Part shown: one piece after another, positions 38,015-64,000 of the stretch
Layout: every line of letters starts with the position of its first letter
How positions within the stretch are numbered: position 1 is the stretch's first letter
Assembly: GCA_045661145.1 (NCBI GenBank)
Contig: JAZRFC010000075.1
Location: 20,763 to 84,762, forward strand
Direction: 5' to 3'
Source: Clostridia bacterium
Lineage (GTDB): Bacteria; Bacillota; Clostridia; UMGS1883
DNA length: 64,000 bases
Made by a program: the position numbers and the translations under genes
Notes under the pieces: generated by a model
Seen by the model: the letters and a program-made list of their open reading frames with translations, nothing else
Database searches by the model: none
Told to the model about the DNA's origin: nothing

Positions 38015-38211
38015 ATCAAAATCTCAGTAACAAAGCGGTTTCTGAGGTTTTTGTTTTGTTTGGAAGCTCTAAATTTTGGCCACATAAAAAAGCGGTTCAA
38101 AGGAAAAGATGACTTTTTGTCTTTTGAAATCTAATAATTTTTACATTACGCATTATGCAATTAGAAATTTGCAACTATCTTGAAAATTTACTGTAATTAT
38201 TTCAAGTAGAA

Positions 38212-39660
38212 TTGGAGGTGCAAACTTTGACATCAGATGTATTTTTTGACGGGAACTTAACTAATTACGAAAAAACAATATATAGCATGGCAATTTCTTT
38301 TAGTCACTGTCACACTTATGTAATAAATGACGATGACATTTCAGAAATTGCTGCACTTCTTTGTGTAGACTACAAACTACTTTATAAAGCAATAAATTAT
38401 TGCACAAATGGAGTGATGCCCGCAGAAATAATAAAAATTGGAGAAAAATACTGCAATCAAAAACAAATAAAAAATGCTGACTTATTTAGTGCAATAGTTA
38501 GATTGTATTTTATATACAAGAACATTGACAAAATCTCAGATGATACCTCATACGATGCAATACTAAATAATTATAATATATTTCAAAGTTGCATTGGGGA
38601 ATTTGACTGTATAAATGCAACAATTGCAACCTTTGAATGTATGGCACATAATTTTTTCACTTTAGAATTCAATGTGTTTAATAGTAGTGATTATCAACCC
38701 AAAAGTCAACTAAATTTGTTAATGTCTTTTCTATCGTATGACCAACAAGATGTTTTTGATAGAAGATATCTCCCCTTTTTATATCGTACTATCAGTTACG
38801 AATTCATTACAAGAGTGAACTCTTTATATTTAATTACTATTGTACAAATTATTAAACATTCTATTTTTATGGATGATAAAATCAAAGCTATTTCAAATGA
38901 AATGTATAGCTACCTTTTGGAAATTATCCAAAACGCAAGAATAATTTCTGTGCAGTCGAATATTTTGTCACCACATAATCAGATTAACCCGAAAGTTCGT
39001 GGGAAGCATGAAAATACAACTAGATTACAAATTCTATATAGCTATGAAAATTTCGACTCGTATTATCTCAGGCTTGATTTAGCACACAAGGGGGAAGGTT
39101 TTATTCATTACAACAATAAATCTCCTGGTGGCATCAAATGTTGTTTATTTACTAAAGCAGAATATCAATCTGTTATTGATAGATTCCCGTTATCAAAGAA
39201 TTTTTTTATAGAATATAGTAATCGATATGCTTTAAAAGAGCTGAGTAATTTAAATTTGACCAAAGAAGAACTTGTTCTGTATGAAAAAATTCGCACAAAA
39301 AAAGAACACCTTCAGGCATTTGAAGATGTATACAACGAGAATAGTGTCATTGATTTTATAAATACAATATCATTAATGCTACCACCTTCTTGTAGAGTCC
39401 CTATCGATGTAGAAGAAAGGCATGCAACATATTGTTTTAATTATGATAAAATAATGTTTTATTCTGTCCTTTTGCAAATAGCCTTCTTTTCTCAAAATCA
39501 AGCAAAATTTGAGAAATTACTATCATTTATTGCATCTCTTGCATGTAAATATGGATTAATTACAGAAGATATGAAATCTGATTTTTCTTGCATTGAAGGA
39601 GTTTGTTTGATTATAGATGAAGCTAAAAACAGAACTATTTCTTACAACAATCAACAATAG
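38212..39660 (+). CDS. Hypothetical protein, 482 aa, no recognisable domain
   Basis: Long, very AT-rich ORF with a TTG start at 38212 and an alternative TTG at 38227 behind a GGAGGTG RBS. No motif was recognised. Confidence 0.6.
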   Translation: MEVQTLTSDVFFDGNLTNYEKTIYSMAISFSHCHTYVINDDDISEIAALLCVDYKLLYKAINYCTNGVMPAEIIKIGEKYCNQKQIKNADLFSAIVRLYFIYKNIDKISDDTSYDAILNNYNIFQSCIGEFDCINATIATFECMAHNFFTLEFNVFNSSDYQPKSQLNLLMSFLSYDQQDVFDRRYLPFLYRTISYEFITRVNSLYLITIVQIIKHSIFMDDKIKAISNEMYSYLLEIIQNARIISVQSNILSPHNQINPKVRGKHENTTRLQILYSYENFDSYYLRLDLAHKGEGFIHYNNKSPGGIKCCLFTKAEYQSVIDRFPLSKNFFIEYSNRYALKELSNLNLTKEELVLYEKIRTKKEHLQAFEDVYNENSVIDFINTISLMLPPSCRVPIDVEERHATYCFNYDKIMFYSVLLQIAFFSQNQAKFEKLLSFIASLACKYGLITEDMKSDFSCIEGVCLIIDEAKNRTISYNNQQ

Positions 39661-39744
39661 TCTTTTCTTTGTTTACACCGTATCAAAATTTAATACGCCC
39701 AAAAGCTATGGCACGGATTTTATGTCCGTGCCGTTTTTGTTTTA

Positions 39745-41175
39745 TTATGCCATTCTAAGCTCGGCTTTTTGGGCTGCTATTTCGGCTTTCATTTTCACTA
39801 TGAGTTTTGCAAGTTCGATTTCGCATTCTTCCTCTGTCTTGGCATATATGTTTCTTGCCATTCGTTTGCCGTAGGCATCCTTTGGCGAGTATCTGCCTTC
39901 GTATAGGTGGTCGTTTATTTTGCTGATGCATCCTGTACCGGGCTTTCGCATCTTGCCCTTTTTAGGCTCGAATTTTGTCTCCTGCGGTGGTTGCTCGCTA
40001 TCTGCTTGTACATTCTCGTCTGTGTCTTTTCCCATGCTGAATCGTGCGTTAATTTTGTCTGCGGCATTCTTTTTCATTTCATCTGTACTATGTAGGTATA
40101 TGTCTATTGTTGTTTTGCTTGATATGTGTCCGAGTATGGTGGATAGTGTTTTGATGTCCATTCCGTTGGCTACTGCGGTTGTGGAGAATGTGTGCCGTAG
40201 GTCATGGAATCGGACCTTTTTGCATTCAGCTCGTTCTAATACCACTTGCATCTGGTGATATACCGCTGATGGATCTCTTGGCATTCCTTCGACGCTTGGC
40301 GATGGGAACATCCACTCGGAATCTACTGTCTTCTTATATTCTTTTAGTATGTCCAGTATATTTTGCGGTAGTATTATACTTCGTATGGAGTCTTTTGTTT
40401 TAGGCTCTGTTATTATCAGTTTGCCTTTTACTCGGCCGACTTGTCTTCCTATGTCCAACTGTCCTGTTTCGAAGTTCAGGTCTTTCCATTTGAGTGCCAT
40501 ATCTTCGCCTCGTCTCATTCCTGTTGCAAGTACCATTATGAAGATTTCGTAGTATCCGTCATATTTGGCTTGTATGAAGAATCTTTTCAGTTCTTCCTTA
40601 CTTAGCACTTGCATCTCTCTTGCTTTCTTTGGTGGCAGTTTACATCCTACGGCAGGGTTTGTTTTGATTAGTCCATCATCTACCGCCCTTTGCAGTGCCG
40701 TTCTGCAGTTTGCGTGGCAGCTCCTGACTAATCTGTCGGATAGTCCTTTGCCGAGGGTGTCGGCATATCTTAGTCTGCCATTCTGCTTGAGGTCCGTGTA
40801 GAATTTTTGCAGGTCATTCTGTGTTAGTTTATTGAGGGGTATATCTCCGAGTTTTGGTATTATGTGTTTGTATATTCTTGATTCATATCCCTCTTGGGTA
40901 GTCATTTTCAGTCCCATCTTGCAGTAGTATTGATACCAGAAGTCTATCCATTCTCCGAAGGGCATACTGCTTTTGACTCGATTCCGTCTTGTGATGCCGA
41001 TTTTGTCCTTGAGTTCATTAAGCTTTTGATTGCATTCGCTCTCAGTTTTGGCAAGGACATTCTTTGTTATCGGCAAGCCCTCTATATCATAGTCTACTAC
41101 AATTCTACCTTCCCATCGGCCATCCTTTCGTAGTCTTATCGTACCTTCGCCGGGTTTTCTCTTTTTCTTTGCCAT
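39745..41175 (-). CDS. Tyrosine-type site-specific integrase with N-terminal AP2-like arm-binding domain and an extra arm-domain-like C-terminal extension
   Basis: N-terminus MAKKKRKPGEGTIRLRKDGRWEGRIVV. The catalytic region HDLRHTFSTTAVANGMDIKTLSTILGH...IDIYLH follows the R..H..R..Y pattern. The C-terminal 70 aa (KMRKPGTGCISKINDHLYEGRYSP...KTEEECEIELAKL) repeats the arm-domain pattern. The ORF extends to 41193. Confidence 0.85.
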   Translation of the reverse strand: MAKKKRKPGEGTIRLRKDGRWEGRIVVDYDIEGLPITKNVLAKTESECNQKLNELKDKIGITRRNRVKSSMPFGEWIDFWYQYYCKMGLKMTTQEGYESRIYKHIIPKLGDIPLNKLTQNDLQKFYTDLKQNGRLRYADTLGKGLSDRLVRSCHANCRTALQRAVDDGLIKTNPAVGCKLPPKKAREMQVLSKEELKRFFIQAKYDGYYEIFIMVLATGMRRGEDMALKWKDLNFETGQLDIGRQVGRVKGKLIITEPKTKDSIRSIILPQNILDILKEYKKTVDSEWMFPSPSVEGMPRDPSAVYHQMQVVLERAECKKVRFHDLRHTFSTTAVANGMDIKTLSTILGHISSKTTIDIYLHSTDEMKKNAADKINARFSMGKDTDENVQADSEQPPQETKFEPKKGKMRKPGTGCISKINDHLYEGRYSPKDAYGKRMARNIYAKTEEECEIELAKLIVKMKAEIAAQKAELRMA

Positions 41176-41189
41176 TTTATCATCTCCTC

Positions 41190-42365
41190 TCATAGTATTT
41201 CATCTAAGAAGCTCCCGACTATTTCGGATGCTCTCTTTTGCATATCGCCTGTTACATGTGTGTATGTATCTACTGTGAAGCTCGGATTTGTATGCCCGAG
41301 TATAGTTGACAGTGTTATCACATCCACTCCTGTTGCTAATGCATGTGTTGCGAAGGTGTGCCGGAGGTCGTGGAAGGATATGTTCGGCAGATTCAGTTTA
41401 CTTAAGAAGCTTTTCGCTTTCCTGTATGCTGCAGGCGGTGCTATGGGCAGCTTTGGATTCAGGAGGTTCGGGAATATCCATTCTGATATCCGTTTCCTAT
41501 TTCGGAGTCTGTCTGCCGTTATCTTAGGCAGAAGGATTTTTCTCTTGCTTTCGTCCGTCTTAGGTTCACCCTCATATATTTCGTCGCCTTTTAGCAGGGA
41601 TATGCTTGTCTTAATTCTTATGATGCCTTCTTTTTCATCGAAGTCTCTCCACCTTAGTCCGCATATTTCACCTCGTCTTAAGCCAGTGGTTAATTCGAGG
41701 TAGAAGAAGTCGCCCCATTCACTATCTTCATCTATGGTTTGCATCAGTATGTCAAGTTCTGCATTGTTCAGTACCTGAAGGTCTTTCTTCTTTTTCTTCG
41801 GCCTTTTTGTTTTCTTGGTAGGATTCTTTGGGATAAGGTGATTGTTTACCGCTATCTCCATTGCTCTGTGTAGTGTAGCATGTATGTCTATGATGGTGTT
41901 ATCTGCAAGTTCGTGTCCATACACGGGGTGCTCTTTGATTCTGCCCGTCTTCTTTAGTTTGACATACATTCTCTGCACTTCGTTTGTACTCAGGAAGGCA
42001 AGCTTCTTTTTGCCGATATGTGGTCTGATATATGTGTTGACGATTCTTCGATTCCTTTCTACTGTTTGAGGTCTAATTGTTCCGGGCAGGTATTCTGTGA
42101 GCCATTTATCTAACCATTCACTTACGGTCATATTACTGTCCTCGGTTAGTTCTACGCCACGATATTCCTCTTTTAGCTGATTGAACTTTTGCAGGAAGTC
42201 TTTTTGGTTTTTATCGGTTGCATATCTGAATATGGGATCGCCATTCTTCTTGTGTCCGACTACGATTCTGCCTTCCCAGTCACCATTAGCTTTCTGTCTT
42301 ACCATACCATCTCCTGAAGGTCTTCGTTTTGCCATTTTCATCACCTCGCTTTTTCTGTAACACAC
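41190..42365 (-). CDS. Tyrosine-type site-specific integrase with N-terminal AP2-like arm-binding domain
   Basis: MAKRRPSGDGMVRQKANGDWEGRIVVGHKK and HDLRHTFATHALATGVDVITLSTILGHTNPSFTVDTYTHV. The true start is probably the internal Met at ~42341 or ~42335. It overlaps the downstream integrase by 4 nt. Confidence 0.85.
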   Translation of the reverse strand: MCYRKSEVMKMAKRRPSGDGMVRQKANGDWEGRIVVGHKKNGDPIFRYATDKNQKDFLQKFNQLKEEYRGVELTEDSNMTVSEWLDKWLTEYLPGTIRPQTVERNRRIVNTYIRPHIGKKKLAFLSTNEVQRMYVKLKKTGRIKEHPVYGHELADNTIIDIHATLHRAMEIAVNNHLIPKNPTKKTKRPKKKKKDLQVLNNAELDILMQTIDEDSEWGDFFYLELTTGLRRGEICGLRWRDFDEKEGIIRIKTSISLLKGDEIYEGEPKTDESKRKILLPKITADRLRNRKRISEWIFPNLLNPKLPIAPPAAYRKAKSFLSKLNLPNISFHDLRHTFATHALATGVDVITLSTILGHTNPSFTVDTYTHVTGDMQKRASEIVGSFLDEIL

Positions 42366-42518
42366 ACAATACTGTAAAGGTTCGAGTAAGTCAAGCGAAA
42401 AAGCGAAACAAATTTACAAAGAATTTCAAAAGACATATAACAGTAATTTTATTGACATAAACCCAATAGAAAAGAGGTTAAGCATGCATTTTATGCTTAA
42501 CCTCTGGTTATATAGATT

Positions 42519-43076
42519 CTATTCCATTGTGCCTACTATTCTATTTATGTCACCGTCTGAGTCTACTATTATTGTTTTAGTTTTGCTCGGTGCCACATAT
42601 CCAAATCCTTCAATGTAGGTTTTATTTTTTTCTTCTATAATTTCATTTCGTATTTTTGTTTCTTCATCGGTGAGATAGCAGGTGTCCTTTGCCATAATTT
42701 CGTCATTCGGATTTATGGGTTCTGCCGGATTCTTTTCCCATTTCGCATAGAGAACATCAGGTTTTGTGAATTTAAATGTTGTTACCTGATTCTGCTTTGT
42801 TTGGGGATCGGTAAACCATCCCTTGAATGTGTATCCGTATTTTGTCGGGACATAACTTTCAAGGCTGATGCTCTCACCGTACCTTTTGGTTATAGGCCTG
42901 ATAAAGCTTCCACCATCAGATGCGAAGGTTAAGGTTACATTTCCTACGATTCCAAGTTCGTTGTCGAAGGTCACTCGGTACTTACTGATCCACCAAGGTT
43001 CTGCCAATGCTGTGGTTGTCATCAGCATCATTGCTACCAACGCCGTACACAACACTTTTTTCTTCATAATTTTCAT
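42519..43076 (-). CDS. Secreted protein with Listeria-Bacteroides (InlB B-type / Flg_new) repeat
   Basis: Signal peptide MKIMKKKVLCTALVAMMLMTTTALA, and YGYTFKGWFTDPQTKQNQ...DVLYAKW matches the Flg_new repeat. Confidence 0.65.
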   Translation of the reverse strand: MKIMKKKVLCTALVAMMLMTTTALAEPWWISKYRVTFDNELGIVGNVTLTFASDGGSFIRPITKRYGESISLESYVPTKYGYTFKGWFTDPQTKQNQVTTFKFTKPDVLYAKWEKNPAEPINPNDEIMAKDTCYLTDEETKIRNEIIEEKNKTYIEGFGYVAPSKTKTIIVDSDGDINRIVGTME

Positions 43077-43243
43077 CTCCTAAATTTGTATTTACCTTTC
43101 GGTAACACAAACATACCACAGAAGATGGCATAAGTCTACGAAGTTTTTTCAAGGACTTTTTCTTTGTTTAAGGCGTATCATATTTTGATATGCCGATGCA
43201 TGCAAATAGCCTGTCACTAAACAAAGTGACAGGCTATTCGTTA

Positions 43244-43465
43244 TTATTTACTTCCAACTATGATAGCTTCGTATGCATCAAAATAATCTTCTGTATTACT
43301 GCTAAGTCCGCTTGCTTTCCACGCTTGCTCAAAAGTAATATCATTTGTGTTACTCAAAATAATGTAGGTAGAATCTTTTACGGCATTATGCAATCTTCCC
43401 GTAAGTTCTAATCTGTATTTGTATATATATGGAAGTTCTTTTACTTTCCATGTTCCGTCACTCAT
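43244..43465 (-). CDS. Hypothetical small protein (73 aa)
   Basis: ORF only; no motif recognised. Confidence 0.35.
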   Translation of the reverse strand: MSDGTWKVKELPYIYKYRLELTGRLHNAVKDSTYIILSNTNDITFEQAWKASGLSSNTEDYFDAYEAIIVGSK

Positions 43466-43495
43466 TTCATAGTGAGTAGAGGAATAACAAAATTC

Positions 43496-43981
43496 TCAGT
43501 TTTTGATGTATTCAGTTATTTTATCTTCGGGAGTTGCATCGTATGTTTTTACAACATCAGGAGCTTCACCAAACGAAACATCTACTATCTCAAAATACTT
43601 ATCATAATCATCATAATCAATTAAAAGTTGTATGGAATCTTTTATATAATAATTAGCTTTTCCTTCAAGTGCTTTGTCAGGAATTGATGCTTTAAGATTA
43701 ACACCGATAACATATTCAATAGGATTATCGTTTAACTTTTTGATTACATTTTCATCTTTTATGGCAAGTTTTTTCTTCGTGTGCTTTTCATCGTCAAGTG
43801 TTATTTCTAACCACACACCGTCTTTTCTTGAGTTTATAAATTGTTGAGCAGAACACATTACCGAACCTGAAGAAGTAATAGTTTTCTCATCTTTATGATT
43901 TTGAAAATATATAATTCCCGACACAATAACAACGATAAGTAAAGAGATTATTAAGTATGTATATTTCTTTTTCATACACAT
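43496..43981 (-). CDS. Hypothetical membrane-anchored protein
   Basis: An N-terminal TM segment (YLIISLLIVVIVSGIIYF) is followed by a soluble domain. 161 aa. Confidence 0.5.
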   Translation of the reverse strand: MCMKKKYTYLIISLLIVVIVSGIIYFQNHKDEKTITSSGSVMCSAQQFINSRKDGVWLEITLDDEKHTKKKLAIKDENVIKKLNDNPIEYVIGVNLKASIPDKALEGKANYYIKDSIQLLIDYDDYDKYFEIVDVSFGEAPDVVKTYDATPEDKITEYIKN

Positions 43982-43987
43982 GCCTCC

Positions 43988-45817
43988 TTACTTTATCTCA
44001 ATATTTATTTTGTCTGCATATCCTTTGTATGTTTCGTAATCTCCAATATTTGAGCTACTAATCAGTATCTCATCAGAATCAATTTCTGCCGCTACTGTTG
44101 GTTTTGAAACTTCAATTCCATCAACAATGACCTTTATGTAATTCTCGTTGTTTGGATATTCCGATATCTTCTTTGTTGCTTCCCTAAAATCTGCCCTTGC
44201 TTTTTCTGTGATTTTCAGTTCTAATGCAACTCCTGTTACATTACCCGCAGCAGGTCCGTCTTCTGGTCGTGGCAACCAACGCACCTTACAAGACAAAATA
44301 TCTTCATCGGTAATAATGTAATTGTTGTCCTTATCCATAATTTTCAGTACGCTTCTGTTATGAAAATTCACATCCTTGCTGTAATTAATCCGAACAGTTG
44401 ACAATCTTGGGTTAATATCCATTTTCAGCATCTTCATAAGTGCATTGTCGGAATCGCCAAGCATTGTTTCTATAAGCTCTTTTGGAGCGTCAATATGCCA
44501 TTCGTCATAATAGCTGCACACTTCATCGTTAAATTGACTTTCTTCAGGAACTATTTTAGCGATAGTTTTTTCTATTCCGGGATATGTTGCAGCTTCGCCA
44601 TAAAGCTTTACCATATAATCATATATCCCGAGAGCCTCATCAAAAGCTTCGCCCTCTGTTTTGAATACATACTGAAATGCACAAAGAACATCATTATAAA
44701 ATTCAACGACTACATGACCTTTTTTATAACCATTCTTTACAATATACATATTGCCTTCCTGATGCCGTGGAGCAGGATATGCTTCATCGCCTGAGTTTAA
44801 CAAATAACTTTCGTCAATATCCATTTCATCAAGCACTAATTCCTTACTGAGTCCTAAATAGGAATTCATAACTGAAGGACCATATCCCATATCAAGATTT
44901 GCAGGACTGCACGGATTGTATCCTACATAATAATTCAGTGCTTCTGCAAGATACCTGAGAGGTACATAGGTTCTTTCATTTATAATCCGCGCTTCGGTAT
45001 TCATATCATATTCCGTACCATTAATCGTATATTGTCTTTTTCCGATTATAAAGCTAAAACTATCTCCACCGGCACCACCGCTTATTTTACTTTCTTCTTC
45101 AGTTACAGTAGATATGAGAACCTTTTGAATATCAGGAATCCAAGTAACACTGCATCCGAGTTGCTCACAAAACTCTCTAACAGGTATTTGAGTTCTTCCG
45201 TCCACATCAATAAATGGTTTATCCATAAACATCATTTCTTTACCGTCAAGCTCAATTCTAAGCTCTCCATCAAAATCTTTAACATAAACATTTCCCAAAT
45301 ATTCCGGTGCGTTTGAGGCCTGTTCTATTTGATTATTTACAGTGATGAGTGCGATTTTCATATCCTCGGTGAATCTTGCTTTTATTTCAAGCATTCTTCC
45401 AAAGTAATATGAGGAAATATATATCTCATCGCCAATTTTGATTGTCATTGGAGCTGACGGAAACATCTCTGTTTTGTTTTCGTATTGACCATCTTTGGAG
45501 AATGTAGTGAAAAAATCATCACCAACGGTAAATATTGCTTTACCCATTGCACTTTCAGAGTTCTTGCAGTTTTCTCCTTCGGTTATTTCGTAGGTGTTTT
45601 CTGAGGTTTCCTTAATATCATATCCCAATAAAGTACAAAGTTCTTTAATTGGCAAATATTCTGTATCATCAATTACAATGTTATTTACATCATTATACGC
45701 TCCGTCAAGATAGACACTTCTCTTGCTTTCTGAATACACAGGTTCTTCTGCTGATGCAATCACCACCATAGAAAGAAACATTGTAACAGATAAGATAATA
45801 GCCAATAATTTTTTCAT
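43988..45817 (-). CDS. Secreted protein with three copper-amine-oxidase N-terminal-like (stalk) domains
   Basis: Signal peptide from MKKLLAIILSVTMFLSMVVIASA. It has three copies of the motif ..IDDTEYLPIKELCTLLGY.., ..DGRTQIPVREFCEQLGCSVTW.. and ..ERTYVPLRYLAEALNY... The ORF extends to 45874. Confidence 0.7.
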   Translation of the reverse strand: MKKLLAIILSVTMFLSMVVIASAEEPVYSESKRSVYLDGAYNDVNNIVIDDTEYLPIKELCTLLGYDIKETSENTYEITEGENCKNSESAMGKAIFTVGDDFFTTFSKDGQYENKTEMFPSAPMTIKIGDEIYISSYYFGRMLEIKARFTEDMKIALITVNNQIEQASNAPEYLGNVYVKDFDGELRIELDGKEMMFMDKPFIDVDGRTQIPVREFCEQLGCSVTWIPDIQKVLISTVTEEESKISGGAGGDSFSFIIGKRQYTINGTEYDMNTEARIINERTYVPLRYLAEALNYYVGYNPCSPANLDMGYGPSVMNSYLGLSKELVLDEMDIDESYLLNSGDEAYPAPRHQEGNMYIVKNGYKKGHVVVEFYNDVLCAFQYVFKTEGEAFDEALGIYDYMVKLYGEAATYPGIEKTIAKIVPEESQFNDEVCSYYDEWHIDAPKELIETMLGDSDNALMKMLKMDINPRLSTVRINYSKDVNFHNRSVLKIMDKDNNYIITDEDILSCKVRWLPRPEDGPAAGNVTGVALELKITEKARADFREATKKISEYPNNENYIKVIVDGIEVSKPTVAAEIDSDEILISSSNIGDYETYKGYADKINIEIK

Positions 45818-45824
45818 TGTGTAT

Positions 45825-46796: not shown

Positions 46797-46807
46797 TACG
46801 CCACCTC

Positions 46808-47362
46808 CTAATTTTCAATAACATAACTCTTTGTTGGCATTACATTTTTAAAATCAACTGCTTTTTCTAATTCTTCCCAAGTTGTTTTGGCAATTTCTTC
46901 TGTGCAAGTATCTTCCAAAAGATGTTGTCCAAATTCTTTTAGCATGTCATACAGTTCCTTTGAAAAGTTTATTTCATATACCGCATCACACCCCGAAACA
47001 TAATCTAAAGTATTTATAATAGCACTAACGTTTCCGTCCTTGTAATAAGATATGTAAGGATATAATTTGTTCAAATTATAACTGTACTTGGTATTGTCTA
47101 TATCTAATTTATGCAAGTCTTTTGCATCGAGAGATTCTGTCTTATTGAGTAAAGCTAGTGTTAAATTTATATAATTGTTCATAAACTCATAGTTGATTTT
47201 ATGTTGTTGCTCATAAGCTTTATAGATTGAACCAATCTGCATACATATTAAAACCACAAATAGAATAATAGCAGTTGTTTTAAATATTTTCTTTTTCATT
47301 GGCAAATACCTCCGGTAATTTTCCTTATATAATATTATATCAGATAATGGTTTTGCTTTCAA
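46808..47362 (-). CDS. Hypothetical membrane-anchored protein
   Basis: The TM segment AIILFVVLICMQIGSI follows the internal Met MKKKIFK at ~47299. 184-aa ORF. Confidence 0.45.
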   Translation of the reverse strand: MKAKPLSDIILYKENYRRYLPMKKKIFKTTAIILFVVLICMQIGSIYKAYEQQHKINYEFMNNYINLTLALLNKTESLDAKDLHKLDIDNTKYSYNLNKLYPYISYYKDGNVSAIINTLDYVSGCDAVYEINFSKELYDMLKEFGQHLLEDTCTEEIAKTTWEELEKAVDFKNVMPTKSYVIEN

Positions 47363-47643
47363 TCGGTATAGAAAATGAAAATAACGACTTTTCTTTTTAC
47401 TACTTGAATAAATGCTTCTATAAGCAAATTGACACCCTTAACAATTAAAGGGTGCCAATTTTATATTTATCCTATTTTGTACCCTTTAGAAACAAGCTCG
47501 GTAACAGTTTTCATACCGATTTCTTTGTTTTCAAAGAATATTTGTTTTGCATTTGGTGATTCCTTAATTGTTATAACTTTTTTATCCTCGTCTATCCACA
47601 CGGACCAAGCTTGTTCCATATTATATCATCATACCCCGCGAAA

Positions 47644-56255: not shown

Positions 56256-57964
56256 TCCTCCTGTTCTTCAAACTTGACCTCTACCACACGACCGAGGTCT
56301 TCGGGGATGTAGAGAAGCTTGTCGCTTTCAAGAAAGTAGTTTGGGTTAATAATGTCGCTTGATTTGAACGGCTCGGGAGTTCCGCGGAAAATGCAGGTAT
56401 GAATATCTTCCCCTGGCATTTCGCCATAGGAACGGGTAATAAGCTTACCATCTCTTATATCTGTATCTGCACCGAGAAAGGTATCAAGGAGGGTGCGCCC
56501 GTCGTATTTGCATATTGCATATCTATCGTATTCTTTTACAATTGTATGGATTCTGTCATAGTCCTGAGTGCAAAGATATATTTTCTCCCCGATGGATATT
56601 CCTGTGTTAATGGGAAGACTGTTTTCATCAACGACTACATTTTCCTTGCTTTCAACAGAATAACGATATAATTTTCCATCACGGTAATAAAGTACTATAT
56701 CAGAATCTTTTTTGGAAGCATTATCCCAACCACGGAAAACAAAGAAAGAAGAAATATTATTAAGCACAGGTGAAACAGTTCCTGTTTGTGTGTCGACACA
56801 GTATAGATTACTTGGACTGTCATCTGATACATCCTGTATCTTCTCTTCAGTATCGTCAATCTGAGGATATCCTGTTAAATAAATATTTTCGTCTGTTACC
56901 TGAGGAACACTGTAGTAAGTCCAACGTTCCTGATTTTTATAACGCTGTTCACCGAAACGTATGTTTTCAAGAACAATCTGTTTGTCAATGCCGTCTTTTG
57001 TGTAATATACAATGGTGCTTCCGGGGTGTCCGCTATTATATCCCGATACGGAAAAACCGTCAAAATTCAGAGTGTAATGATTATATCCAGAGTATTTGTT
57101 TTGTGACCTTTCGATTTTTTCGAATGTTCCGTCAGAATTGATTTTATAATTATAGTCAATTCCCGTTGATGCTCCGCCTATATGATAAGAAACATATACC
57201 TGACCGTTGTCATAAGAAAAATATGCCATTGTTTGGTCAGAAATGTAGTTGTCGGGAATGGTGTGAATGCATTCATACTGAGATAAGTTGTGTGCGGGAG
57301 CGCGATAAATTTTGTTGTCTGTACACTCGTAATAGTAGTATTTTTTGTCGGCAGCGGCTGAAACAATCTTGTGATGATCGGGGACGAAAACAGGGAGTGT
57401 TCGGCAAATGTAGTTATCTGCGCTTATCTTAAGTCCGCTTTCCTCAGTATAGCTGTATTCCCAGCCGAATTCATCAACTGCAAAACGCCATGTGAGAGGG
57501 AAGTAAGTAACATTGCGGAAAAGTATAAGTGGATATTCCTCATTTTTATTGTCAATTTCTTTTCCGTTTACAATAATATTGAAATTACAAATAGTAATTT
57601 CATTTGACTTTCCGTTTTTCCATTCCCAGTTGTAGTTACGGTATGCACCCGAAATATTTTCCTTTGTAATTTCAAGGTTGTTTGTATCTCCGTTCCACTT
57701 TGTAGAAACACCGAGGAAACGACAATCGTAGTATGTCATGGGAAAATACACTATATCCCTAAATTGCAGAAGTGGATACTGACGATTAATACTGTCAACC
57801 TCTTGACCATTGAATGTAACTTTACACTTAGGAATGTACGCGTATTCTTCTACCTCTCCTATGGATTCATCACTGAATCCATAGGGATTCTGTGCCAACA
57901 CACACAAGGGAATCAGTATTATAATTATAATTAAAGAAATGACTTTCACAAGGTTCTTTTTCAT
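56252..57964 (-). CDS. Secreted stalk-domain + beta-propeller-like protein, paralog 2
   Basis: Same architecture as paralog 1. The start is probably MKKNLVKV at ~57964; the ORF extends to 57988. Confidence 0.7.
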   Translation of the reverse strand: MKKNLVKVISLIIIIILIPLCVLAQNPYGFSDESIGEVEEYAYIPKCKVTFNGQEVDSINRQYPLLQFRDIVYFPMTYYDCRFLGVSTKWNGDTNNLEITKENISGAYRNYNWEWKNGKSNEITICNFNIIVNGKEIDNKNEEYPLILFRNVTYFPLTWRFAVDEFGWEYSYTEESGLKISADNYICRTLPVFVPDHHKIVSAAADKKYYYYECTDNKIYRAPAHNLSQYECIHTIPDNYISDQTMAYFSYDNGQVYVSYHIGGASTGIDYNYKINSDGTFEKIERSQNKYSGYNHYTLNFDGFSVSGYNSGHPGSTIVYYTKDGIDKQIVLENIRFGEQRYKNQERWTYYSVPQVTDENIYLTGYPQIDDTEEKIQDVSDDSPSNLYCVDTQTGTVSPVLNNISSFFVFRGWDNASKKDSDIVLYYRDGKLYRYSVESKENVVVDENSLPINTGISIGEKIYLCTQDYDRIHTIVKEYDRYAICKYDGRTLLDTFLGADTDIRDGKLITRSYGEMPGEDIHTCIFRGTPEPFKSSDIINPNYFLESDKLLYIPEDLGRVVEVKFEEQED

Positions 57965-57977
57965 ATATACCACACCT

Positions 57978-59258
57978 TTACACGTCAAATATTATAAACG
58001 ACAATACAAATTCGTTTTCTTTCTGTTCTATGTTCAACACATGCTTGTACTTTGAAAGCGCTGCCTTGATATTTTCGATCCCATACCCATGGTTTTTTCT
58101 GTCCTGTTTCGTTGTTTTGAGACTCATAGATTTATTTTCCGCACAAGAATTTGATATTTTACATATAACACAATCTTCATCATATATAATCTGGATACAT
58201 ATATATTTTTTGTCTTTCAGTTTTTCACACGCCTCAATAGCATTATCCAGCGCATTTCCGAAAATAACACATACATCTATAGGTTCAATTCCAAGATTCT
58301 CATAAATTTGAATATTGGTTTTAAATTCTATTTTCTTACTTTCCGCAATTAACAGTTTTGAGTTAATTATTGCATCTAATGCAATATTTCCCGTCGAAAC
58401 ACTTCTTTGCGTTTTGGAAATAGCTTCATCCATAGATGCTATGTATGCCTGACCCCCTTTGCTGTCGTCACGTCTGAAATATTCTTCTATTGCTGCCATA
58501 TGATTTTTTATATCATGCCTGAATTTTCGCAGTTCTCCTTGCATGAAAAGGATCTCATCCAAGTGCTTTGCCTGTGATTTAATCTGCTGTTCGACCACTT
58601 GTTGTCTTCCAGTAATTTCTGCCTGCTTTGCCATATTTTCATACAAATAAATCACGAAGAAATTACTGAGCATCAATCCCACAGAGCATATAACAGTCAG
58701 TATACTCAATTCCTGTTTTGGATTATGGTATGAGAGATTAAAAAACAAAAACTCTGCTACTGTGGTACTCGCAAACACCACAAAAAACAAAATCCAGTAT
58801 GAAGCAGTTTTCTTAGATTTGTTTTTACCGCCATAACAAACAATCTTGAATACGGCAAATCCAAATATTTTGGAAATCACCGTTCCCAGATATCTGAGTA
58901 TATCTGACTCCATTAATTGCTCAGTTGTTATTCCAAAAATTGCAGAAAGTCCGAACATGGTAATTATTTCTGTAATAACGCTTAATAAAATTCCCAATGC
59001 TGCAATAACCGGACGAAGCAAAAACGGGCATCTGTAAAAAAGCGAAGAAGTTATGATTACTGAAAAAATAACCACAGCGTTCCATATACCGAAATTGAAA
59101 AACATATTACCTATAAAAATACACACCGCCATTATACAAATAACAAACGGACGAATCACACTATTTAGTACTTCTTTTTTTTCAAAATATGTATCCATCA
59201 GCATAAGGTATAAATACGCCTCAACAAAACAAGTCATAAGTGTCATCAAAATATTCAT
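57978..59258 (-). CDS. AgrC/LytS-like GHKL sensor histidine kinase (HK2), paralog of HK1
   Basis: Same architecture as HK1. The H-box region KHLDEILFMQGELRKFRHDIKNH aligns with HK1 KHLDDILVMQNQIKGFRHDIKNH. Confidence 0.85.
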   Translation of the reverse strand: MNILMTLMTCFVEAYLYLMLMDTYFEKKEVLNSVIRPFVICIMAVCIFIGNMFFNFGIWNAVVIFSVIITSSLFYRCPFLLRPVIAALGILLSVITEIITMFGLSAIFGITTEQLMESDILRYLGTVISKIFGFAVFKIVCYGGKNKSKKTASYWILFFVVFASTTVAEFLFFNLSYHNPKQELSILTVICSVGLMLSNFFVIYLYENMAKQAEITGRQQVVEQQIKSQAKHLDEILFMQGELRKFRHDIKNHMAAIEEYFRRDDSKGGQAYIASMDEAISKTQRSVSTGNIALDAIINSKLLIAESKKIEFKTNIQIYENLGIEPIDVCVIFGNALDNAIEACEKLKDKKYICIQIIYDEDCVICKISNSCAENKSMSLKTTKQDRKNHGYGIENIKAALSKYKHVLNIEQKENEFVLSFIIFDV

Positions 59259-59971
59259 ATTAGCATATATTTCCTTTCCTTGTAGTTGATGAACTTCTCC
59301 CCGAATTCTTTTTTGTATTTTCTGCCCAACGGAATTTTTGCATTACTTTCATAAAGAGATATTTCATTATCTTTAATTTCTTTAACATATGCCATATTAA
59401 CCGCATAAGAATTATGCACACGGCAAATTTTTTCTTCACTTACCACACGGCAAAGTTCACTTAGAGACTTATGTATACGATAAATTCGTTCTTTTGTATA
59501 AATAAAAAGTTGATGTGACTGACTTTCAAGGAAAATAATATCTTCACAGTAAAGTCTGACTTTCTCGCGGTTTTCCAAAAAAATCAATGTACTTCTTTCC
59601 TCGGAAAGCTTTTCTTCTATATCCCTCAAGGTCTTTTTAAAATCTTCAAATGACATGGGTTTTATTAAAAAGCGAAATGGGGTACATTCAAAACATTCAC
59701 GCATATACTGCGTATGCTGTGTCACAAACACAATTATTACATGCTTGTCCATTTTGCGTATCAGGTTTCCTGTATTGATTCCACTGATCCCAGACATTTC
59801 CATGTCAAGAAAGATTGCATCATAATTTTGTTTTCGACAGTCGTATGCTTTCAGAATTTCTTCGCCACTGTGAAAAACATCGTAATACGGAGCATTTCTC
59901 TCCATTGAGTCAAGGTATTTTTCAACAGTATTTATATATTCAAAACTGTCATCACATATCGCAATATGCAT
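59255..59971 (-). CDS. LytTR-family response regulator (RR2), paralog of RR1
   Basis: MHIAICDDSFEYINTVEKYL aligns with RR1 MELNIAICDDNQEYINILEKYI. It has a C-terminal LytTR domain. Confidence 0.88.
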   Translation of the reverse strand: MHIAICDDSFEYINTVEKYLDSMERNAPYYDVFHSGEEILKAYDCRKQNYDAIFLDMEMSGISGINTGNLIRKMDKHVIIVFVTQHTQYMRECFECTPFRFLIKPMSFEDFKKTLRDIEEKLSEERSTLIFLENREKVRLYCEDIIFLESQSHQLFIYTKERIYRIHKSLSELCRVVSEEKICRVHNSYAVNMAYVKEIKDNEISLYESNAKIPLGRKYKKEFGEKFINYKERKYMLI

Positions 59972-60175
59972 TTTGTCTCTCCCTCAAATGAATTTATTAA
60001 ATTATAACAGAAATTGCAATGTTTTCTCATATAATTACGCAGACAACACTTTTAGATTCCTAAATTACACAACATTTATATATACTTTCCGCAAATGTGA
60101 GCCATAACTAATGCAATCAAAACAGTTCTTATGAATTTTAATTTATTTTAAAGTTAAAAGGGAAAATTAATTCAA

Positions 60176-61804
60176 TTACGGTTTCAACTTAACTTCGCAA
60201 AATTCTCCTGTTTCTATATTTCTATAAATCAGTGTATCTCCAAAAATTGTGATTGCAGTCGCATCATCCGCACTTACAAATGGAGATCTCACATGGTTGT
60301 TAAACCCCTCGTTAGACGCATCAAATACAACAAGTCTTGCACTTGGGTTTTCCGATTTATCCCTTGCTACTAAGTAGCCATTCTGATAGCTGAAGCTTGT
60401 ATTCGTTGAAAAAGTCATTATTCTTTCTCTACCCTGGTACGGAGGTGGTACAGAACCGTTAGGATCCCCGTACACATCTACATGCGAGCCGTTATCGTCT
60501 TTTGTAATAACATACATTCCCCAAAACGGACTTTTTTCAACGTAAGCTTCGTCTTCCTGTATAATTTGTATCATATCCAGAAATGTTCCCGAATTTTCTC
60601 TCACTTCAAAATACTGTCCCGAATCAACATGATATTGGTCAAGACATCCATCACAAGTGTAAATAACCACTTGACCTCTTGTTTCGCTATCGTATGCCTT
60701 AAAATTATCAACATTGTCTTCTATTTCCAAAATCTTTCCGCTTTTAACATTTATGGAATACAAAATTTTTACTTCTTCCTCACCCTTATATCCGATTACA
60801 TAAATATTATCTCCTACAATCTGAGGAGGGATAACATCAAGCGACGAATGTCGTCCAGGTGTTCCAAAAGAGATTTCGGGGATTTTAACCTCGGTTCGGT
60901 TTTCCCCAACATAGTAGCAAAAGCTCCAATCGCCGGTAAAGAAAGACAATTCAGCCGTAACACCATCGCCGTAGGCACAATAGTAACTTGCTGGACCGCT
61001 TGCCTTTTCAGCCTCTGTAAGTGTTTTATCCTTATTGATATAATATTTATGGTCTGATCCCATCGTAGCACCGCCGCTGCGGTAGGATAAATAAACCTTT
61101 CCGTCTGCATAGCTGAGTCCTGCAGGAATTCCGCTTTCAATGTGGTGAATAACCTCCTGCTTGCCGAGATCATTAACAGGTGTTCTGTATATGTTTCCGT
61201 TGGCTGAATTATGATGGTAATAATACTCTCCGTCACAGGTAAATCCGGCATACGCACCGACCATTTCAAGAGCAGATAAGTCCAGCATCTTAACTCTGTG
61301 ATTAGATGAATTTATTACAAGCCCGTTTTTGTTGTCAAAAAAGTATTCCCATCCAAATTCATCGACCGCAAACCGCCAAGTAAGAGGAAAATATGTCACA
61401 TCACGGAAAGTCAGGAGTGGATAAGGTTCTGTTTTATTATCAATCGTTTTTCCATTTACAATAATATTAAAATTGCAAATACTAACATCATTTTCCGTTT
61501 GGTTCTTACTCTCGCTTTTATAGGCAGTAAGAACAGAATTTATATTCTTCTTTGATATAGTAAGAGTATTTGTTACTCCATCCCATGCAGTTACAATACC
61601 GAGATGACGGCTATCAAAATAGGTCATAGGGAAATATGTAATATCCTTGTATACGAGCAGTGGGTACTGTCTGAATTCATTTTCAACTTTGTTTCCATTG
61701 AAATAAACATCAAATTCAGGCAAAACTGCAATTTCTTTTGCTGACACAGACATCGCAGGTATTACCATTACGATAATCATCAAAACAATAAACATCTTTT
61801 TCAT
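60176..61804 (-). CDS. Secreted stalk-domain + beta-propeller-like protein, paralog 3
   Basis: Signal peptide, then the stalk repeats QYPLLVYKDITYFPMTYFDSRHLG and PYPLLTFRDVTYFPLTWRFAVDEFGWEY. Confidence 0.7.
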   Translation of the reverse strand: MKKMFIVLMIIVMVIPAMSVSAKEIAVLPEFDVYFNGNKVENEFRQYPLLVYKDITYFPMTYFDSRHLGIVTAWDGVTNTLTISKKNINSVLTAYKSESKNQTENDVSICNFNIIVNGKTIDNKTEPYPLLTFRDVTYFPLTWRFAVDEFGWEYFFDNKNGLVINSSNHRVKMLDLSALEMVGAYAGFTCDGEYYYHHNSANGNIYRTPVNDLGKQEVIHHIESGIPAGLSYADGKVYLSYRSGGATMGSDHKYYINKDKTLTEAEKASGPASYYCAYGDGVTAELSFFTGDWSFCYYVGENRTEVKIPEISFGTPGRHSSLDVIPPQIVGDNIYVIGYKGEEEVKILYSINVKSGKILEIEDNVDNFKAYDSETRGQVVIYTCDGCLDQYHVDSGQYFEVRENSGTFLDMIQIIQEDEAYVEKSPFWGMYVITKDDNGSHVDVYGDPNGSVPPPYQGRERIMTFSTNTSFSYQNGYLVARDKSENPSARLVVFDASNEGFNNHVRSPFVSADDATAITIFGDTLIYRNIETGEFCEVKLKP

Positions 61805-61893: not shown

Positions 61894-62080
61894 TTTATTT
61901 GTAAAACTCGTAATTAATTATATCACTATTCTTTAAATTTAACAATCTATATTAATATACATTATATGGATGCAAAGAAAATATATTTATTTCTTTTTCT
62001 TCTTATGCTTTGCCCATATTTTTTCACCTCCTGCGAGACAAAGCATACCACATAAGAGAGAGGAAGTCCACGAAGTTTTT

Positions 62081-62446
62081 TTACAATCTTCCATGTCTTT
62101 TCTTAACATTTTCGATTGCCATCTCTTCAATGTCTTCCATGTAGTACTGAGTATAGGCACCACTCATGATCATCGTTTGCTTTTCAATGCTGACAGCAAA
62201 TTTGAAAAGCATATCGGCGACTCTGTCTGTGTGACCGGCGATTGTACAATCTACTGCCTGAACCAACAGTTTATTCATGTATGTACCTATGCTATCATAC
62301 TGAAGTTTTGAGAGATATTCTTCGATAGCTTCACCGCAAAATGCACTCTCACTTTTGTAGCCAAGGTCCTCAACATAATTTTTAATTTGTCTTTGAACCT
62401 CGATAGGAACATTGAAAGTCATCTTAACTTTTTTGTTCTTCTTCAT
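62081..62446 (-). CDS. Ribbon-helix-helix (CopG/MobC-like) protein, probable relaxase accessory factor
   Basis: The N-terminal MTFNVPIEVQRQIKNYVEDLGYKSESAFCGEAIEEYL fits an RHH fold. It lies immediately downstream of the relaxase gene. Confidence 0.5.
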   Translation of the reverse strand: MKKNKKVKMTFNVPIEVQRQIKNYVEDLGYKSESAFCGEAIEEYLSKLQYDSIGTYMNKLLVQAVDCTIAGHTDRVADMLFKFAVSIEKQTMIMSGAYTQYYMEDIEEMAIENVKKRHGRL

Positions 62447-62464
62447 TGTATTTTCACCTCCTTT

Positions 62465-63596
62465 TTACATTCCGTGATGGATACCCATCGCAGTATCTTT
62501 TCTGTATTCTTTTGTTCTTTCTTTTGAATCCACAATTGATTTTGTGAATCCTTCCTGGATGTCATGGTCAATGGACTGCTCAAACATTTTACAGAGATTG
62601 AATACAATGTCAGCATAGACTGGTGTAGCTCTGACTGTATTTGTATATAAATTGTTCCGCTTATTATCGTAGAGAGTCGCTTTTAAAACAGCATTTGCTA
62701 AGCGTTTTTGGAGATTAAGATTGTTCTCCAGACTATCGAAACATTCTTCAGGATCCTTGCGATAATATTTCAAGAGAGCCAACTGAACCTGACACCATTG
62801 TTGATACAATTCTTGCAGGTTTAGATCCTTGCTTACGACTTTTACAACCGCATCGACTTTGTCTTTTTGCTCACGAGAAAGGAACTGATAATTTTTCTTG
62901 CCGGTGTATCCTGCAAGAGACAATTTCAATTCATAAAACGCACCGACAAACTCATCGGGAGCTTGACCAACATCAGCACTAAACTCACTGACTTTTTCTT
63001 TCACGGACTCAACAATTTTATCTCGAAGAGATTGTCTCGCATCATAGAGCTGCTGCATCTCATCTTTGAATATAGTTTTGGTCAGCGACTCCTTGTAGCG
63101 TTCATAGTCTCTCGGGCAAATAAATTCGCCGCCGGGTTCCTTATTATACACAAGAAAATGAACATGATAGTGGCCTTGCTCTTTATGAAAGGCAGCGTAC
63201 CATTTCATATTTTCAGCAGGAATTCTGTGGTAGGATGCTATATCAAACTGCTTCGACCTGAGAAGATTTCTCCACGCATCAGGCGTATCATATCCAAGTC
63301 TTTCTGCATCAGTTTGCCTGAGAGATATGATTTCTTCCCAGACAATTCCTTTGTGATGATATATTTCCTGCGATGCCTTATGGAGATTTACATAGTCCTC
63401 TTGACCAAACAAACCATGTTCGCCCATCTTTACAACCCCAGATCTCTCGGCAGCATATTGAGTGAACACATCCGACCTGTACCTTGTATTAATTGTTTTA
63501 TCAACTCTGTCTCTCTTTGAAATATATTCTGTGAATCCGCCGCCGACAGGTTTACCTGTCTTGCAGTATCGTGTTGATATAAAAACTTTACTCATA
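62465..63596 (-). CDS. MobP/MobA-VirD2-like relaxase (mobilisation nuclease)
   Basis: The histidine motif HKEQGHYHVHFLV is of the H-x-[DE]-x2-H-x-H-x-H type, and Tyr residues sit near the N-terminus. The start was reassigned to ATG 63596 (MSKVFISTRY) behind a GGAGG RBS. The ORF extends to 63748. Confidence 0.6.
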
Positions 63597-63644
63597 ATTT
63601 TTCCTCCAATCTCAAAAATTCTTGTAATTTTGAAGACACCTGTT

Positions 63645-63680
63645 TTAACACCTGTTGAAACGCCCACACGGTGCGGGTCG
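63645..63680. promoter_or_regulatory. GC-rich inverted repeat upstream of the relaxase gene, candidate oriT/nic region
   Basis: GTGCGG-GTCGACGGGAATA-CCGCAC lies within an unusually GC-rich 250 bp directly 5' of the relaxase gene. Confidence 0.3.
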
Positions 63681-64000
63681 ACGGGAATACCGCACACCCA
63701 AACCGCACCTGTAGATGCATTTTTCAAACTCTCCGCCGGGCTTTGCACGGCGATGTAAGCCTGCTTGGGGCGGATAACGCACCAAGCTTTATCCTGCTTC
63801 CTTCAAAAACACCACGCCTCGCCGTTTCGGGGCGCCCCATCAGGTGATTTCTCGTACTTCCGTTTGTTCTTTTAAATCGATTTTAAGGGTTTAACATAGG
63901 GCTTATCTCTTCGGTTCGAGAGGTTAACTTTTCAGGGTGGTGTAACTACCTTACCCCAAATAGTTATATGCTGAAACCCCGCCTTAAGCCCTTGGTCATA

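Follow-up and report, generated by a model that had tools for sequence, protein, structure and literature searches.

What has been inserted next to the tRNA-Pro(CGG) gene of a Clostridia bacterium (GTDB lineage Bacteria; Bacillota; Clostridia; UMGS1883), and which recombinases brought it there? The stretch that we have analyzed, the window in what follows, is 64,000 nucleotides long (assembly GCA_045661145.1, contig JAZRFC010000075.1, positions 20,763 to 84,762 of the forward strand; window positions are used throughout). A sequence-only reading took the AT-rich DNA on its right for an integrative mobilizable element (IME) in the tRNA gene's 3' end, served by two tandem tyrosine integrases of which one, here called IntB, carries an additional arm-like domain at its C-terminus. 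On balance we favor another reading, in which everything from 37568 to beyond 64000 is a composite of mobile units at a tRNA-Pro hotspot, and in which IntB and its partner IntA would act jointly on a conserved 33-bp site, M.

The two recombinases are encoded as follows:

41190–42365, minus strand: IntA, a tyrosine recombinase, 391-aa open reading frame (ORF) with PF00589 and Phage_int_SAM_3 matches
39745–41193, minus strand: IntB, a tyrosine recombinase of 482 aa, characterized by domain searches, self-alignment and AlphaFold2

Relatives were collected at two levels. A search with the IntB protein gave 6034 matches at E ≤ 1e-10; the best 120 were inspected (mostly about 480 aa long, with 95–100% coverage and about 60% identity) and 114 of these were aligned. 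A scan of GTDB species genomes gave at least 600 matching stretches, at least 564 of them encoding IntB relatives, and 80 loci were kept; of the denominators used below, 57 counts the loci with enough upstream sequence and 44 those with a tRNA-Pro in range. The loci, cited by number (L001 and so on) where they need to be told apart, are by their record titles all from Clostridia of the Oscillospiraceae, Ruminococcaceae and Acutalibacteraceae kind, many of them gut or faecal metagenome-assembled genomes, and the relatives of the host genome are annotated as Clostridia, Oscillospiraceae and allied families.

The overlapping same-strand integrases described by the sequence-only reading are borne out by both ORFs, by the 4 nt (ATGA) that their reading frames share, with the IntA stop lying over the IntB start as it also does in L001, and by their domain matches. 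Phage_int_SAM_3 and Phage_integrase are found in both proteins (PF00589 E-values of 3e-24 for IntB and 7e-22 for IntA), which are 36% identical to each other. The ATG at 42335 is the probable start of IntA, giving 381 aa as in L001. IntB is laid out as an N-terminal arm-like domain, a SAM-like core-binding domain, a catalytic domain, a linker of ~30 aa and a C-terminal arm-like domain. Its residues R226/R227, K264, H329, R332, H355 and Y365 are invariant in the 114-protein alignment, while in IntA the catalytic motifs TGLRRGE, EPKTDESKR, FHDLRHTF, LGH and DTYTH can be read by eye. Judged by these residues, both proteins are members of the tyrosine recombinase superfamily with intact catalytic motifs. 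The closest solved structure by sequence is the Tn1549 integrase (6EMY, 6EN0, 6EMZ; E=2.4e-18 for 6EMY), and the core-binding and catalytic domains are closest to those of the Tn916/Tn1549 integrases. Other families fit poorly: the NCBIfam Xer models reach 63–72 bits against a cutoff of 330, and integron membership was rejected on integron-integrase models that score far under cutoff (TIGR02249, 48–49 bits versus 265; NF011946, 22–34 bits versus 435). Membership among the recombinase in trio (RIT) elements was rejected as well, there being two recombinase genes only, in the window and in 52/57 loci, both with arm-like N-termini. The plasmid matches of IntB are distant, with at most 38% identity and without the C-terminal domain.

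The genes form a genuine tandem pair, as had been proposed: in 52 of the 57 loci the gene directly upstream of IntB is of the IntA type, and the identities of IntA and IntB to their window counterparts co-vary across loci (Spearman 0.47, p=2e-4). A MobL/MobP3 relaxase homologue is found within 10 kb upstream of the pair in 16 of 38 loci, often abutting IntA. Four metagenome ORFs of 720–789 aa (P0011, P0016, P0017 and P0041) are IntA-IntB fusions, end-to-end or internally deleted; they keep the gene order and may be pseudogenes or products of assembly errors or frameshifts.

Past the IntB terminator lies M, a conserved 33-bp sequence with the consensus TCAAAATTTGAG-N-GCAGTAAACAAAGAAAA. Its left and right parts are non-symmetric and include TCAAAATTTGA and AAACAAAGAAAA; a palindromic core of the form CAAAG-N7-CTTTG was considered and rejected, since it fits 5 of 79 copies. 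We searched for M with a position weight matrix (PWM) and used shuffled sequences as the null, the best shuffle scoring 7.4 bits. The window holds exactly two strong copies, both on the minus strand, and a degenerate third site that scores under the PWM threshold:

38047–38079, minus strand: M0, where the T-tract and tail of the tRNA terminator make up a degenerate M-like site (CCAAAATTTAGAGCTTCCAAACAAAACAAAAAC), aligned by eye with a 1-nt gap
39662–39694, minus strand: M1, with which the integrase unit closes at its 3' end; 33 bp (ATTAAATTTTGATACGGTGTAAACAAAGAAAAG), PWM score 34.4 bits
43157–43189, minus strand: M2, with which the cargo/relaxase unit closes at its 3' end and which directly adjoins the beginning of the integrase unit; 33 bp, PWM score 35.2 bits

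Across the 80 loci, 100 of 101 copies of M share the strand of IntB. Two or more copies, from 0.2 to more than 8 kb apart, are present in 31 loci. M always sits downstream of the terminator of the preceding gene. About three quarters of the copies are not beside integrase genes and close units of 0.2–8 kb that often hold one gene; examples are units with a chromate transporter, with an ion channel, or with ORF482, the 482-aa ORF of the window. The conservation of M has a sharp edge: information content drops to zero right after CAAAGAAAA, and it is exactly at this M end, right past ...CAAAGAAAAG, that the window, L001, L002 and L003 part from one another. An M-like tail also follows tRNA-Pro in L001, L015 and L044, and in L094, which has no IntA/IntB nearby; we propose that M0 is the attB-type copy.

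Between and beyond these sites we distinguish the following features:

38212–39660, plus strand: unit A, the single 482-aa ORF482, GC about 0.30, inserted relative to L001, L002 and L003
42519–43076, minus strand: ORF185, which encodes a secreted protein with Flg_new repeats and opens the integrase unit; common to the L003 block
43244–61804, minus strand: cargo of unit C, namely secreted/surface proteins, two kinase/regulator pairs and a DUF2500 protein, GC 0.30–0.39
62465–63595, minus strand: MobP3/MobL-family relaxase of unit C, 376 aa from an ATG behind GGAGG, identified with NCBIfam and Pfam

ORF482 has no Pfam, NCBIfam or PADLOC match. Unit B runs from M2 to M1 over 3.5 kb and consists of ORF185, IntA and IntB. 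Homology between the window and L003 is confined to 39723–43206, with unrelated DNA outside these limits and 73% identity in IntB, and what L001 has in common with the window is IntA-IntB-M1; on these comparisons unit B is a discrete 3.5-kb module. Taken together, the M copies, unit B and the ORF482 insertion let the window be read as tRNA, M0, unit A, M1, unit B, M2 and unit C, that is, as an apparent array in which three or more units, each with M at its end, share one orientation. The GC mosaic fits a composite origin, with 0.43 in the integrases against 0.30–0.39 in the cargo. M-to-M elements that contain their own integrases exist elsewhere: a 7.46-kb unit with the order HTH_17, ORF, HTH_36, ORF, MobL, IntA, IntB, ion channel occurs in all ten places shown (L083–L092) of the 161 index blocks for that element, and L012 and L041 contain similar units.

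The same-species samples L083–L092 have identical IntB and differ in the genes between IntB and tRNA-Pro (12.2–15 kb), which are a nitroreductase, a thioredoxin/rhodanese, TnpV or a serine recombinase; their breakpoints lie 130–260 bp past M, at about 13.45–13.5 kb, or else at the tRNA 3' end. In L089 (12261–13378) an insertion sequence with an rve transposase lies inside an M copy, with about 25 bp duplicated on both sides. Fragments of IntB genes occur beside M copies, a mid-gene piece in L012 (11715–11948) and a C-terminal end in L016 (about 690–827), and stem from former integrase units that decayed in place.

The left edge of the foreign DNA is marked by tRNA-Pro sequences:

37472–37500, plus strand: host sigma-70-type promoter of the ancestral tRNA-Pro (TTGACT-17-TATAAT), 11/12 consensus positions, kept in L093 and L094
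37544–37567, plus strand: 24-nt 5' fragment of the ancestral host tRNA-Pro, read from the sequence
37746–37786, plus strand: 41-nt tRNA-Pro 5' half that ends just past the anticodon loop (TTCGGGA+C) and has the host-type stem CTTCG, read from the sequence
37787–37938, plus strand: 152-bp unit before the complete tRNA, with GTGGTC/CCACAG repeats; homologous units lie between 5' halves elsewhere
37939–38015, plus strand: complete tRNA-Pro(CGG), found by ARAGORN and Rfam

The left neighbor at 35869–37404 encodes a YifB/ComM-type ATPase. L093 and L094, whose YifB proteins are 90–91% identical to it, are syntenic with the window from about 26 kb up to the tRNA-Pro promoter at 77–84% nucleotide identity and have one tRNA-Pro(CGG) each behind that conserved promoter; beyond the tRNA they have entirely different genes (L093 has a redox/transport set with a prophage end, and L094 a giant polyvalent protein). 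Synteny stops at 37501–37541, that is, at the start of the ancestral tRNA, so the 24-nt fragment marks the true left edge of the foreign DNA. Much of the earlier description stands here: the tRNA-Pro(CGG) is present, the DNA beyond it is foreign and variable, and GC drops from 0.42–0.46 over 1–38 kb to 0.30–0.39 over 38–63 kb, the integrase genes at 0.43 excepted. Its view of the tRNA at 37939 as the host target does not hold. The anticodon stem of this gene is CTTGC/GCAAG and the host type, as in L093 and L094, is CTTCG/CGAAG, a compensatory change on both strands; the complete tRNA is therefore an imported replacement copy and not the host original, of which the start at 37544 survives only as 5' fragments.

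Between the 24-nt fragment and the 41-nt half lie 178 nt, and the 152-bp unit that follows the half contains an inverted pair of ATGTGGTCAAA (37873–37883, 37889–37899) and CCCACAGACA (37905–37914). Such stacks are common: 29 of 44 GTDB loci with tRNA-Pro in range, L002, L003, L012, L014, L015, L026, L027 and L044 included, have one to three extra 5' halves upstream of the complete gene with a period of about 190–210 bp, each half stopping right past the anticodon loop and being followed by a homologous unit of ~150 bp with TTGACCAC/CCACAGAC repeats. Fragments and complete tRNA-Pro disagree on both strands of the anticodon stem in these 29 loci, which implies that the whole gene would have been replaced. 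We read this as serial site-specific replacement, with a crossover that falls within the anticodon loop or, in one case in the window, within the D-loop; the replacement DNA would bring a leader of ~150 bp, an entire tRNA-Pro with its terminator, and M. Displaced tRNA 3' halves were not found within 10–26 kb or beside the left-hand M copies, and neither the 3' end nor the 3' half of the tRNA recurs in the window, apart from an unrelated tRNA-Pro(TGG) at 6.3 kb; the absence of a direct repeat of the tRNA 3' end, reported earlier, is confirmed. Nor is there support for a nested model with a tRNA 3' half left behind by every IntA/IntB unit at its distal end, since the left-hand M copies have no 3' halves near them.

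How might such a locus be built? We suggest that IntA and IntB form a heteromeric recombinase, as XerC and XerD do, that acts on M, the site which ends each unit. A circular unit would recombine its M with a chromosomal M, the primary target being the M-like tail of the tRNA-Pro terminator, and the crossover would fall at or just after CAAAGAAAA. Repeated events would yield same-orientation arrays of units, some with integrases and many without, together with remnants. Units B and C together supply what an IME needs, and may either move jointly or have C mobilized in cis. The three arm-like domains of an IntA/IntB pair would probably bind the TCAAAATTTGA part of M and CTGTGG-N6-8-TGTGGTC motifs; repeats of the latter form are present at the unit start (43090–43115) and beside the tRNA (37873–37914).

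Several observations weigh against this reading. No inverted-repeat core could be defined in M from 79 copies, and M lies within 200 bp of the IntB stop in only 23 of 73 loci. In L083, L084 and L090 the strain-to-strain breakpoints lie 130–260 bp beyond M and not at it; therefore some elements may use M as an arm or accessory site and cross over elsewhere. We found no contig with terminal overlaps that would represent an excised circle, no junction of M1 to the unit start in the metagenome scan, and no empty/occupied pair for one same unit. The M arrays do not explain the tRNA 5'-half fragments, and a second IntA/IntB subfamily lacks M and uses tRNA 3' ends. The right end of unit C, of which at least 20.8 kb are seen, lies outside the window, which stops at 64000; no identical copy of the relaxase or of the 542-aa protein was found, and DNA patterns from the window end had no exact match among genome or metagenome contigs. 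Finally, the arm-binding identity of the terminal domains rests on topology, a weak fold match and a sequence pattern, while AP2 models and a Foldseek search of the PDB are blank.

Small virome records labeled 'Bacteriophage sp.' that carry IntA/IntB were considered as possible circles and rejected, being chromosomal fragments with tRNA-Pro. The second subfamily is represented by a 6-kb element in L047 (7044–13085) and L056 (7043–13090), 93% identical between these two loci and set in unrelated flanks. It has no M and terminates in CCGTCTGTGGTATTTCTGTGGTCAAAAG, a hairpin and TGGTGGA; in L047 a tRNA-Ala(CGC) adjoins it with its 3' end, which is integration of the classical kind at a tRNA 3' end.

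A more far-reaching claim, which we put forward as a tentative possibility, is that IntA/IntB, as a heteromeric pair, and M constitute an unrecognized gut-Clostridia system that builds and reshuffles cassette-like arrays beside tRNA-Pro and imports complete tRNA-Pro genes through crossover in the anticodon loop, the stacked 5' halves being what is left of earlier copies. If this were true, IntB would be bivalent for arm sites through its N- and C-terminal domains, and integration would displace the 5' half of the target tRNA instead of the usual 3' part. A related alternative to the composite assembled by accretion takes the units as integron-like cassettes, with M as an analogue of attC, the tail of the tRNA-Pro terminator as the platform, and IntA/IntB capturing, excising and reordering cassettes of one gene and entire mobilizable elements alike. 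It would account for the large share of M copies that close short units away from integrases, for their nearly uniform orientation, for their one-sided conservation and constant position after a terminator, and for the variation of the IntB-to-tRNA stretch between samples of one species. Still, we hold it rather unlikely: elements that accreted in tandem and then decayed would look no different, and such decay is documented by IntB pseudogene fragments beside M copies; the integrases sit inside units and not at a fixed platform; the breakpoints of L083, L084 and L090 are not at M; and there is no evidence of cassette circles.

We consider it unlikely that the locus is, as first supposed, one AT-rich IME, 26 kb or longer, that classical site-specific recombination has placed in the host tRNA-Pro(CGG) at its 3' end, with attR beyond the window and M as an internal accessory site. 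Part of that description survives, namely the relaxase, the integrases and the foreign DNA, and by the larger ORFs scanned the locus has what would define an IME, its own integrases and a relaxase without conjugation pore genes (18 larger window ORFs were covered by the domain scan for type IV secretion, phage and cargo families). The layout is also what a single element would show, with integrases facing the tRNA, the relaxase at the far end, and 39.7–63.6 kb all on one strand; many relatives hold the relaxase and IntA/IntB in one M-bounded element with no M between, and the sister subfamily does integrate at tRNA 3' ends. What lacks support is the unity of the element. A full-strength M2 separates the cargo and relaxase, whose far end is beyond the window, from the 3.5-kb M-bounded integrase unit, and this unit alone is what L003 has in common with the window; the GC mosaic, the insertion of ORF482 between the integrases and the tRNA relative to L001–L003, and the adjacent tRNA, which is not the host copy, all speak against a single insertion. 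The attR that was expected as a repeat of the tRNA 3' end is absent from the 26 kb, and the repeats that delimit units are the 33-bp M.

A third possibility is that IntA and IntB work independently, one at the anticodon loop of tRNA-Pro, where it would leave the 5' halves, and the other at M. The two kinds of scar do co-occur, 5' halves lying alongside M arrays in 29/44 loci, and catalytic residues are kept in both proteins. Such a division of labor is quite unlikely to hold, given that the pair is equally conserved in the subfamily without M and without 5' halves, that the overlapping genes and their co-varying divergence suggest a single functional unit, and that no displaced tRNA 3' halves lie beside the elements.

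The second arm-like domain of IntB is encoded as follows:

39748–39966, minus strand: coding region of the IntB C-terminal arm-like domain (about aa 410–482), supported by family conservation, codon pattern and AlphaFold2

That the C-terminus repeats the arm-domain pattern of the N-terminus, an observation of the sequence-only reading, is confirmed by self-homology: IntB residues ~410–470 align to its own residues 10–61 (BLASTP, 42% over 52 aa, E=2e-9), and hhalign of the N-terminal against the C-terminal family profile gives a probability of 97.5% and E=7.7e-12. Among the 114 aligned relatives the C-terminal block is as conserved as the catalytic domain, with R415, G418-T419-G420-C421, E431-G432-R433, P436, Y449 and C456-E457 near-invariant; the IntB match runs to residue 465 or further in 80/80 loci, and a profile of the C-terminal domain alone matches 1192 representative clusters at 50% identity. 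Differences in the last 75 codons fall mostly at third positions (8/8/23 over the three codon positions versus L001 and 9/9/26 versus L003), a pattern that points to purifying selection on the domain. AlphaFold2 predicts a strand-strand-strand-helix fold for the isolated domain (pLDDT about 87) and finds this topology at both 16–64 and 421–480 of full-length IntB, with a low-confidence linker to the catalytic domain. A BFVD fold search with the arm-like domain returns phage integrases as 4 of the top 6 matches, all weak (E >0.001, best 7e-3); PDB sequence and Foldseek searches with it give no match. Pfam AP2/arm-binding models match neither end of either integrase, isolated N- and C-terminal segments included, so of the domain content expected earlier Phage_int_SAM_3 stands for both proteins and the 'AP2' label is dropped.

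By this conservation and codon pattern the C-terminal repeat is a genuine extension, the first of the two alternatives offered earlier, and its origin by duplication of the IntB N-terminal domain is plausible. The other alternative, a functionless fused N-terminus of a lost third recombinase in a degenerate RIT array, and likewise a frameshift, sequencing or assembly error, might draw on the resemblance to an integrase N-terminus and on the plausibility of a duplication or fusion, and can be set aside with near certainty because the domain is conserved at the same position in all 80 kept loci and hundreds of clusters, with near-invariant residues, bears the mark of purifying selection and is confidently predicted to fold. 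In some IntB relatives, such as P0073 (530 aa) and L071 just past its IntB match, the C-terminal arm-like domain is succeeded by one more extension, which is HTH-like (…IAEYMRTHPEVTNKSQIAKAVEVDRSTVGKYYDEIRKE), so that DNA-binding modules seem to be accumulating at the tail of IntB.

How does the system relate to known ones? With the Tn916/Tn1549-type integrases IntA and IntB share the succession of an N-terminal arm-like, a SAM-like core-binding and a catalytic domain, and the setting in relaxase-bearing integrative elements. Unlike these, they are two paralogues in an overlapping operon, IntB has a second arm-like domain past the catalytic domain, and no Xis gene lies beside the integrase genes, an HTH_17 gene being found at the other end of complete elements. 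The likeness to XerC/XerD is that two paralogous tyrosine recombinases (YRs) with intact motifs could each serve one half of an asymmetric site of ~30 bp. Xer proteins have no arm-binding domains, are encoded by chromosomal housekeeping genes and act at dif; the Xer models are far below cutoff here, and as heteromeric action is itself our inference, the analogy would be functional only. More than one adjacent YR gene is also found in Tn554 (TnpA/TnpB/TnpC), in RIT elements (RitA/B/C) and in the Vibrio strand-biased circularizing integrative elements (IntA/IntB). To our knowledge, the gene sets and end structures of Tn554 and RIT elements are not seen at this locus. By domain content IntA and IntB seem to group with the arm-binding YRs and, in this, unlike Tn554 and RIT: in the published YR classification, the Rit and TnpA (Tn554) groups are 'simple' YRs without arm-binding domains and with other signature insertions, arm-binding domains are N-terminal, and the C-terminal extras are the conserved helix of RitC and the replaced terminal helix of the lambda type (PMC8138268).

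The array itself resembles the tandems produced by accretion in Firmicutes, the related genus Faecalibacterium included, in which same-orientation att copies separate complete elements, integrase-less elements and remnants (PMC12084326). Like the tandems of integrative and conjugative elements, IMEs and cis-mobilizable elements in Streptococcus and Faecalibacterium, ours has same-orientation att-type copies between units; unlike them, it uses a 33-bp site by a tRNA terminator, has units down to 200 bp or one gene, and employs the IntA/IntB recombinase. With integrons it shares one-orientation arrays of units that each end in a recombination site with one-sided conservation. It differs from them in showing no evident fixed platform with a promoter and in having its recombinase genes within a unit; many units, moreover, come with promoters and terminators of their own.

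In the literature that we searched there is no description of paired integrases with a C-terminal arm-like domain, and an IME review has none of the phrases for paired or multiple integrases that were sought in it (PMC5704250). The locus is probably best described as an IME, or a tandem array, whose integrase module is novel and would be heteromeric, of an architecture that is apparently undescribed. A second arm-like domain could change how the intasome is bridged and how directionality is set. With at least 564 GTDB stretches and 1192 C-domain clusters the IntB family is widespread, and IntA/IntB are probably a major route by which surface proteins, signaling systems and other cargo move. 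The limits of elements now annotated only as 'site-specific integrase' can be drawn with the help of the 33-bp M and of the stacked 5' halves of tRNA-Pro. The questions that the system raises are whether the pair is a real heteromeric arm-type integrase, what the C-terminal domain binds, and by which route the target tRNA gene is replaced.

The far end of the window contains the mobilization module of unit C, which comprises, besides the relaxase:

62081–62446, minus strand: ORF121, 121 aa, downstream of the relaxase; a 121-aa gene also follows the relaxase in L098 and L099
63763–63794, no strand assigned: GC-rich inverted repeat about 170 bp upstream of the relaxase start, a candidate oriT

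The MobP-like relaxase predicted earlier is well supported, matching the NCBIfam MobP3 model NF041499 (E=1e-63, 215.6 bits, cutoff 150) and Pfam MobL PF18555 (E=1e-19, 71.3 bits, cutoff 28.5). ORF121 had been called a ribbon-helix-helix (RHH) protein. It has no significant Pfam or NCBIfam match, RHH/CopG/MobC-type models included, so that it may at most be RHH-like; from its recurrence it is a conserved partner gene of the relaxase. The GC-rich inverted repeat was located where it had been reported and might serve as oriT; it is not conserved at the nucleotide level in other loci. No plasmid relatives of the relaxase end were found at the DNA level. Relatives of the module are 87–88% identical over 62000–63997; in them a copy of M sits 2.3–2.9 kb upstream of the relaxase, followed by DUF6076, HTH_17 and HTH_36, which predicts that unit C ends near 65.9–66.6 kb.

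The cargo, all on the minus strand, is rich in secreted and surface proteins, as had been noted; proteins with signal peptides carry Cu_amine_oxidN1, SLH, WG_beta_rep and Flg_new domains, the last in ORF185. The scan of the 18 larger ORFs detected no type IV secretion or phage structural families, again in line with the earlier description. Its 'Agr-like two-component systems' hold in part: two pairs of HATPase_c_5 kinase and LytTR regulator are encoded at 49670–51672 and 57978–59971, and no AgrB is found among the window ORFs scanned, so that 'Agr-like' fits the kinase/regulator pairs only and not a full Agr locus. In L099 (8275–11129) a full Agr-type set lies behind the same relaxase module, made up of a LytTR regulator, a HATPase_c_5 kinase, AgrB and a 52-aa ORF. 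A 240-aa ORF at 52042–52764 has sub-threshold HEPN matches (RiboL-PSP-HEPN and Cthe_2314-like HEPN at E of about 2e-3, and the HEPN region of the PADLOC Cas13a model at E=3e-3) and may be a toxin or defense gene; defense-system models gave nothing significant on this ORF or on ORF482. Three paralogous secreted proteins of 540–580 aa, with a weakly Cu_amine_oxidN1-like N-terminal region, are encoded at 54600–56255, 56252–57988 and 60176–61804; the genes for the first two lie side by side, and the second kinase/regulator pair stands between them and the third, an arrangement that suggests duplication of a block of cargo.

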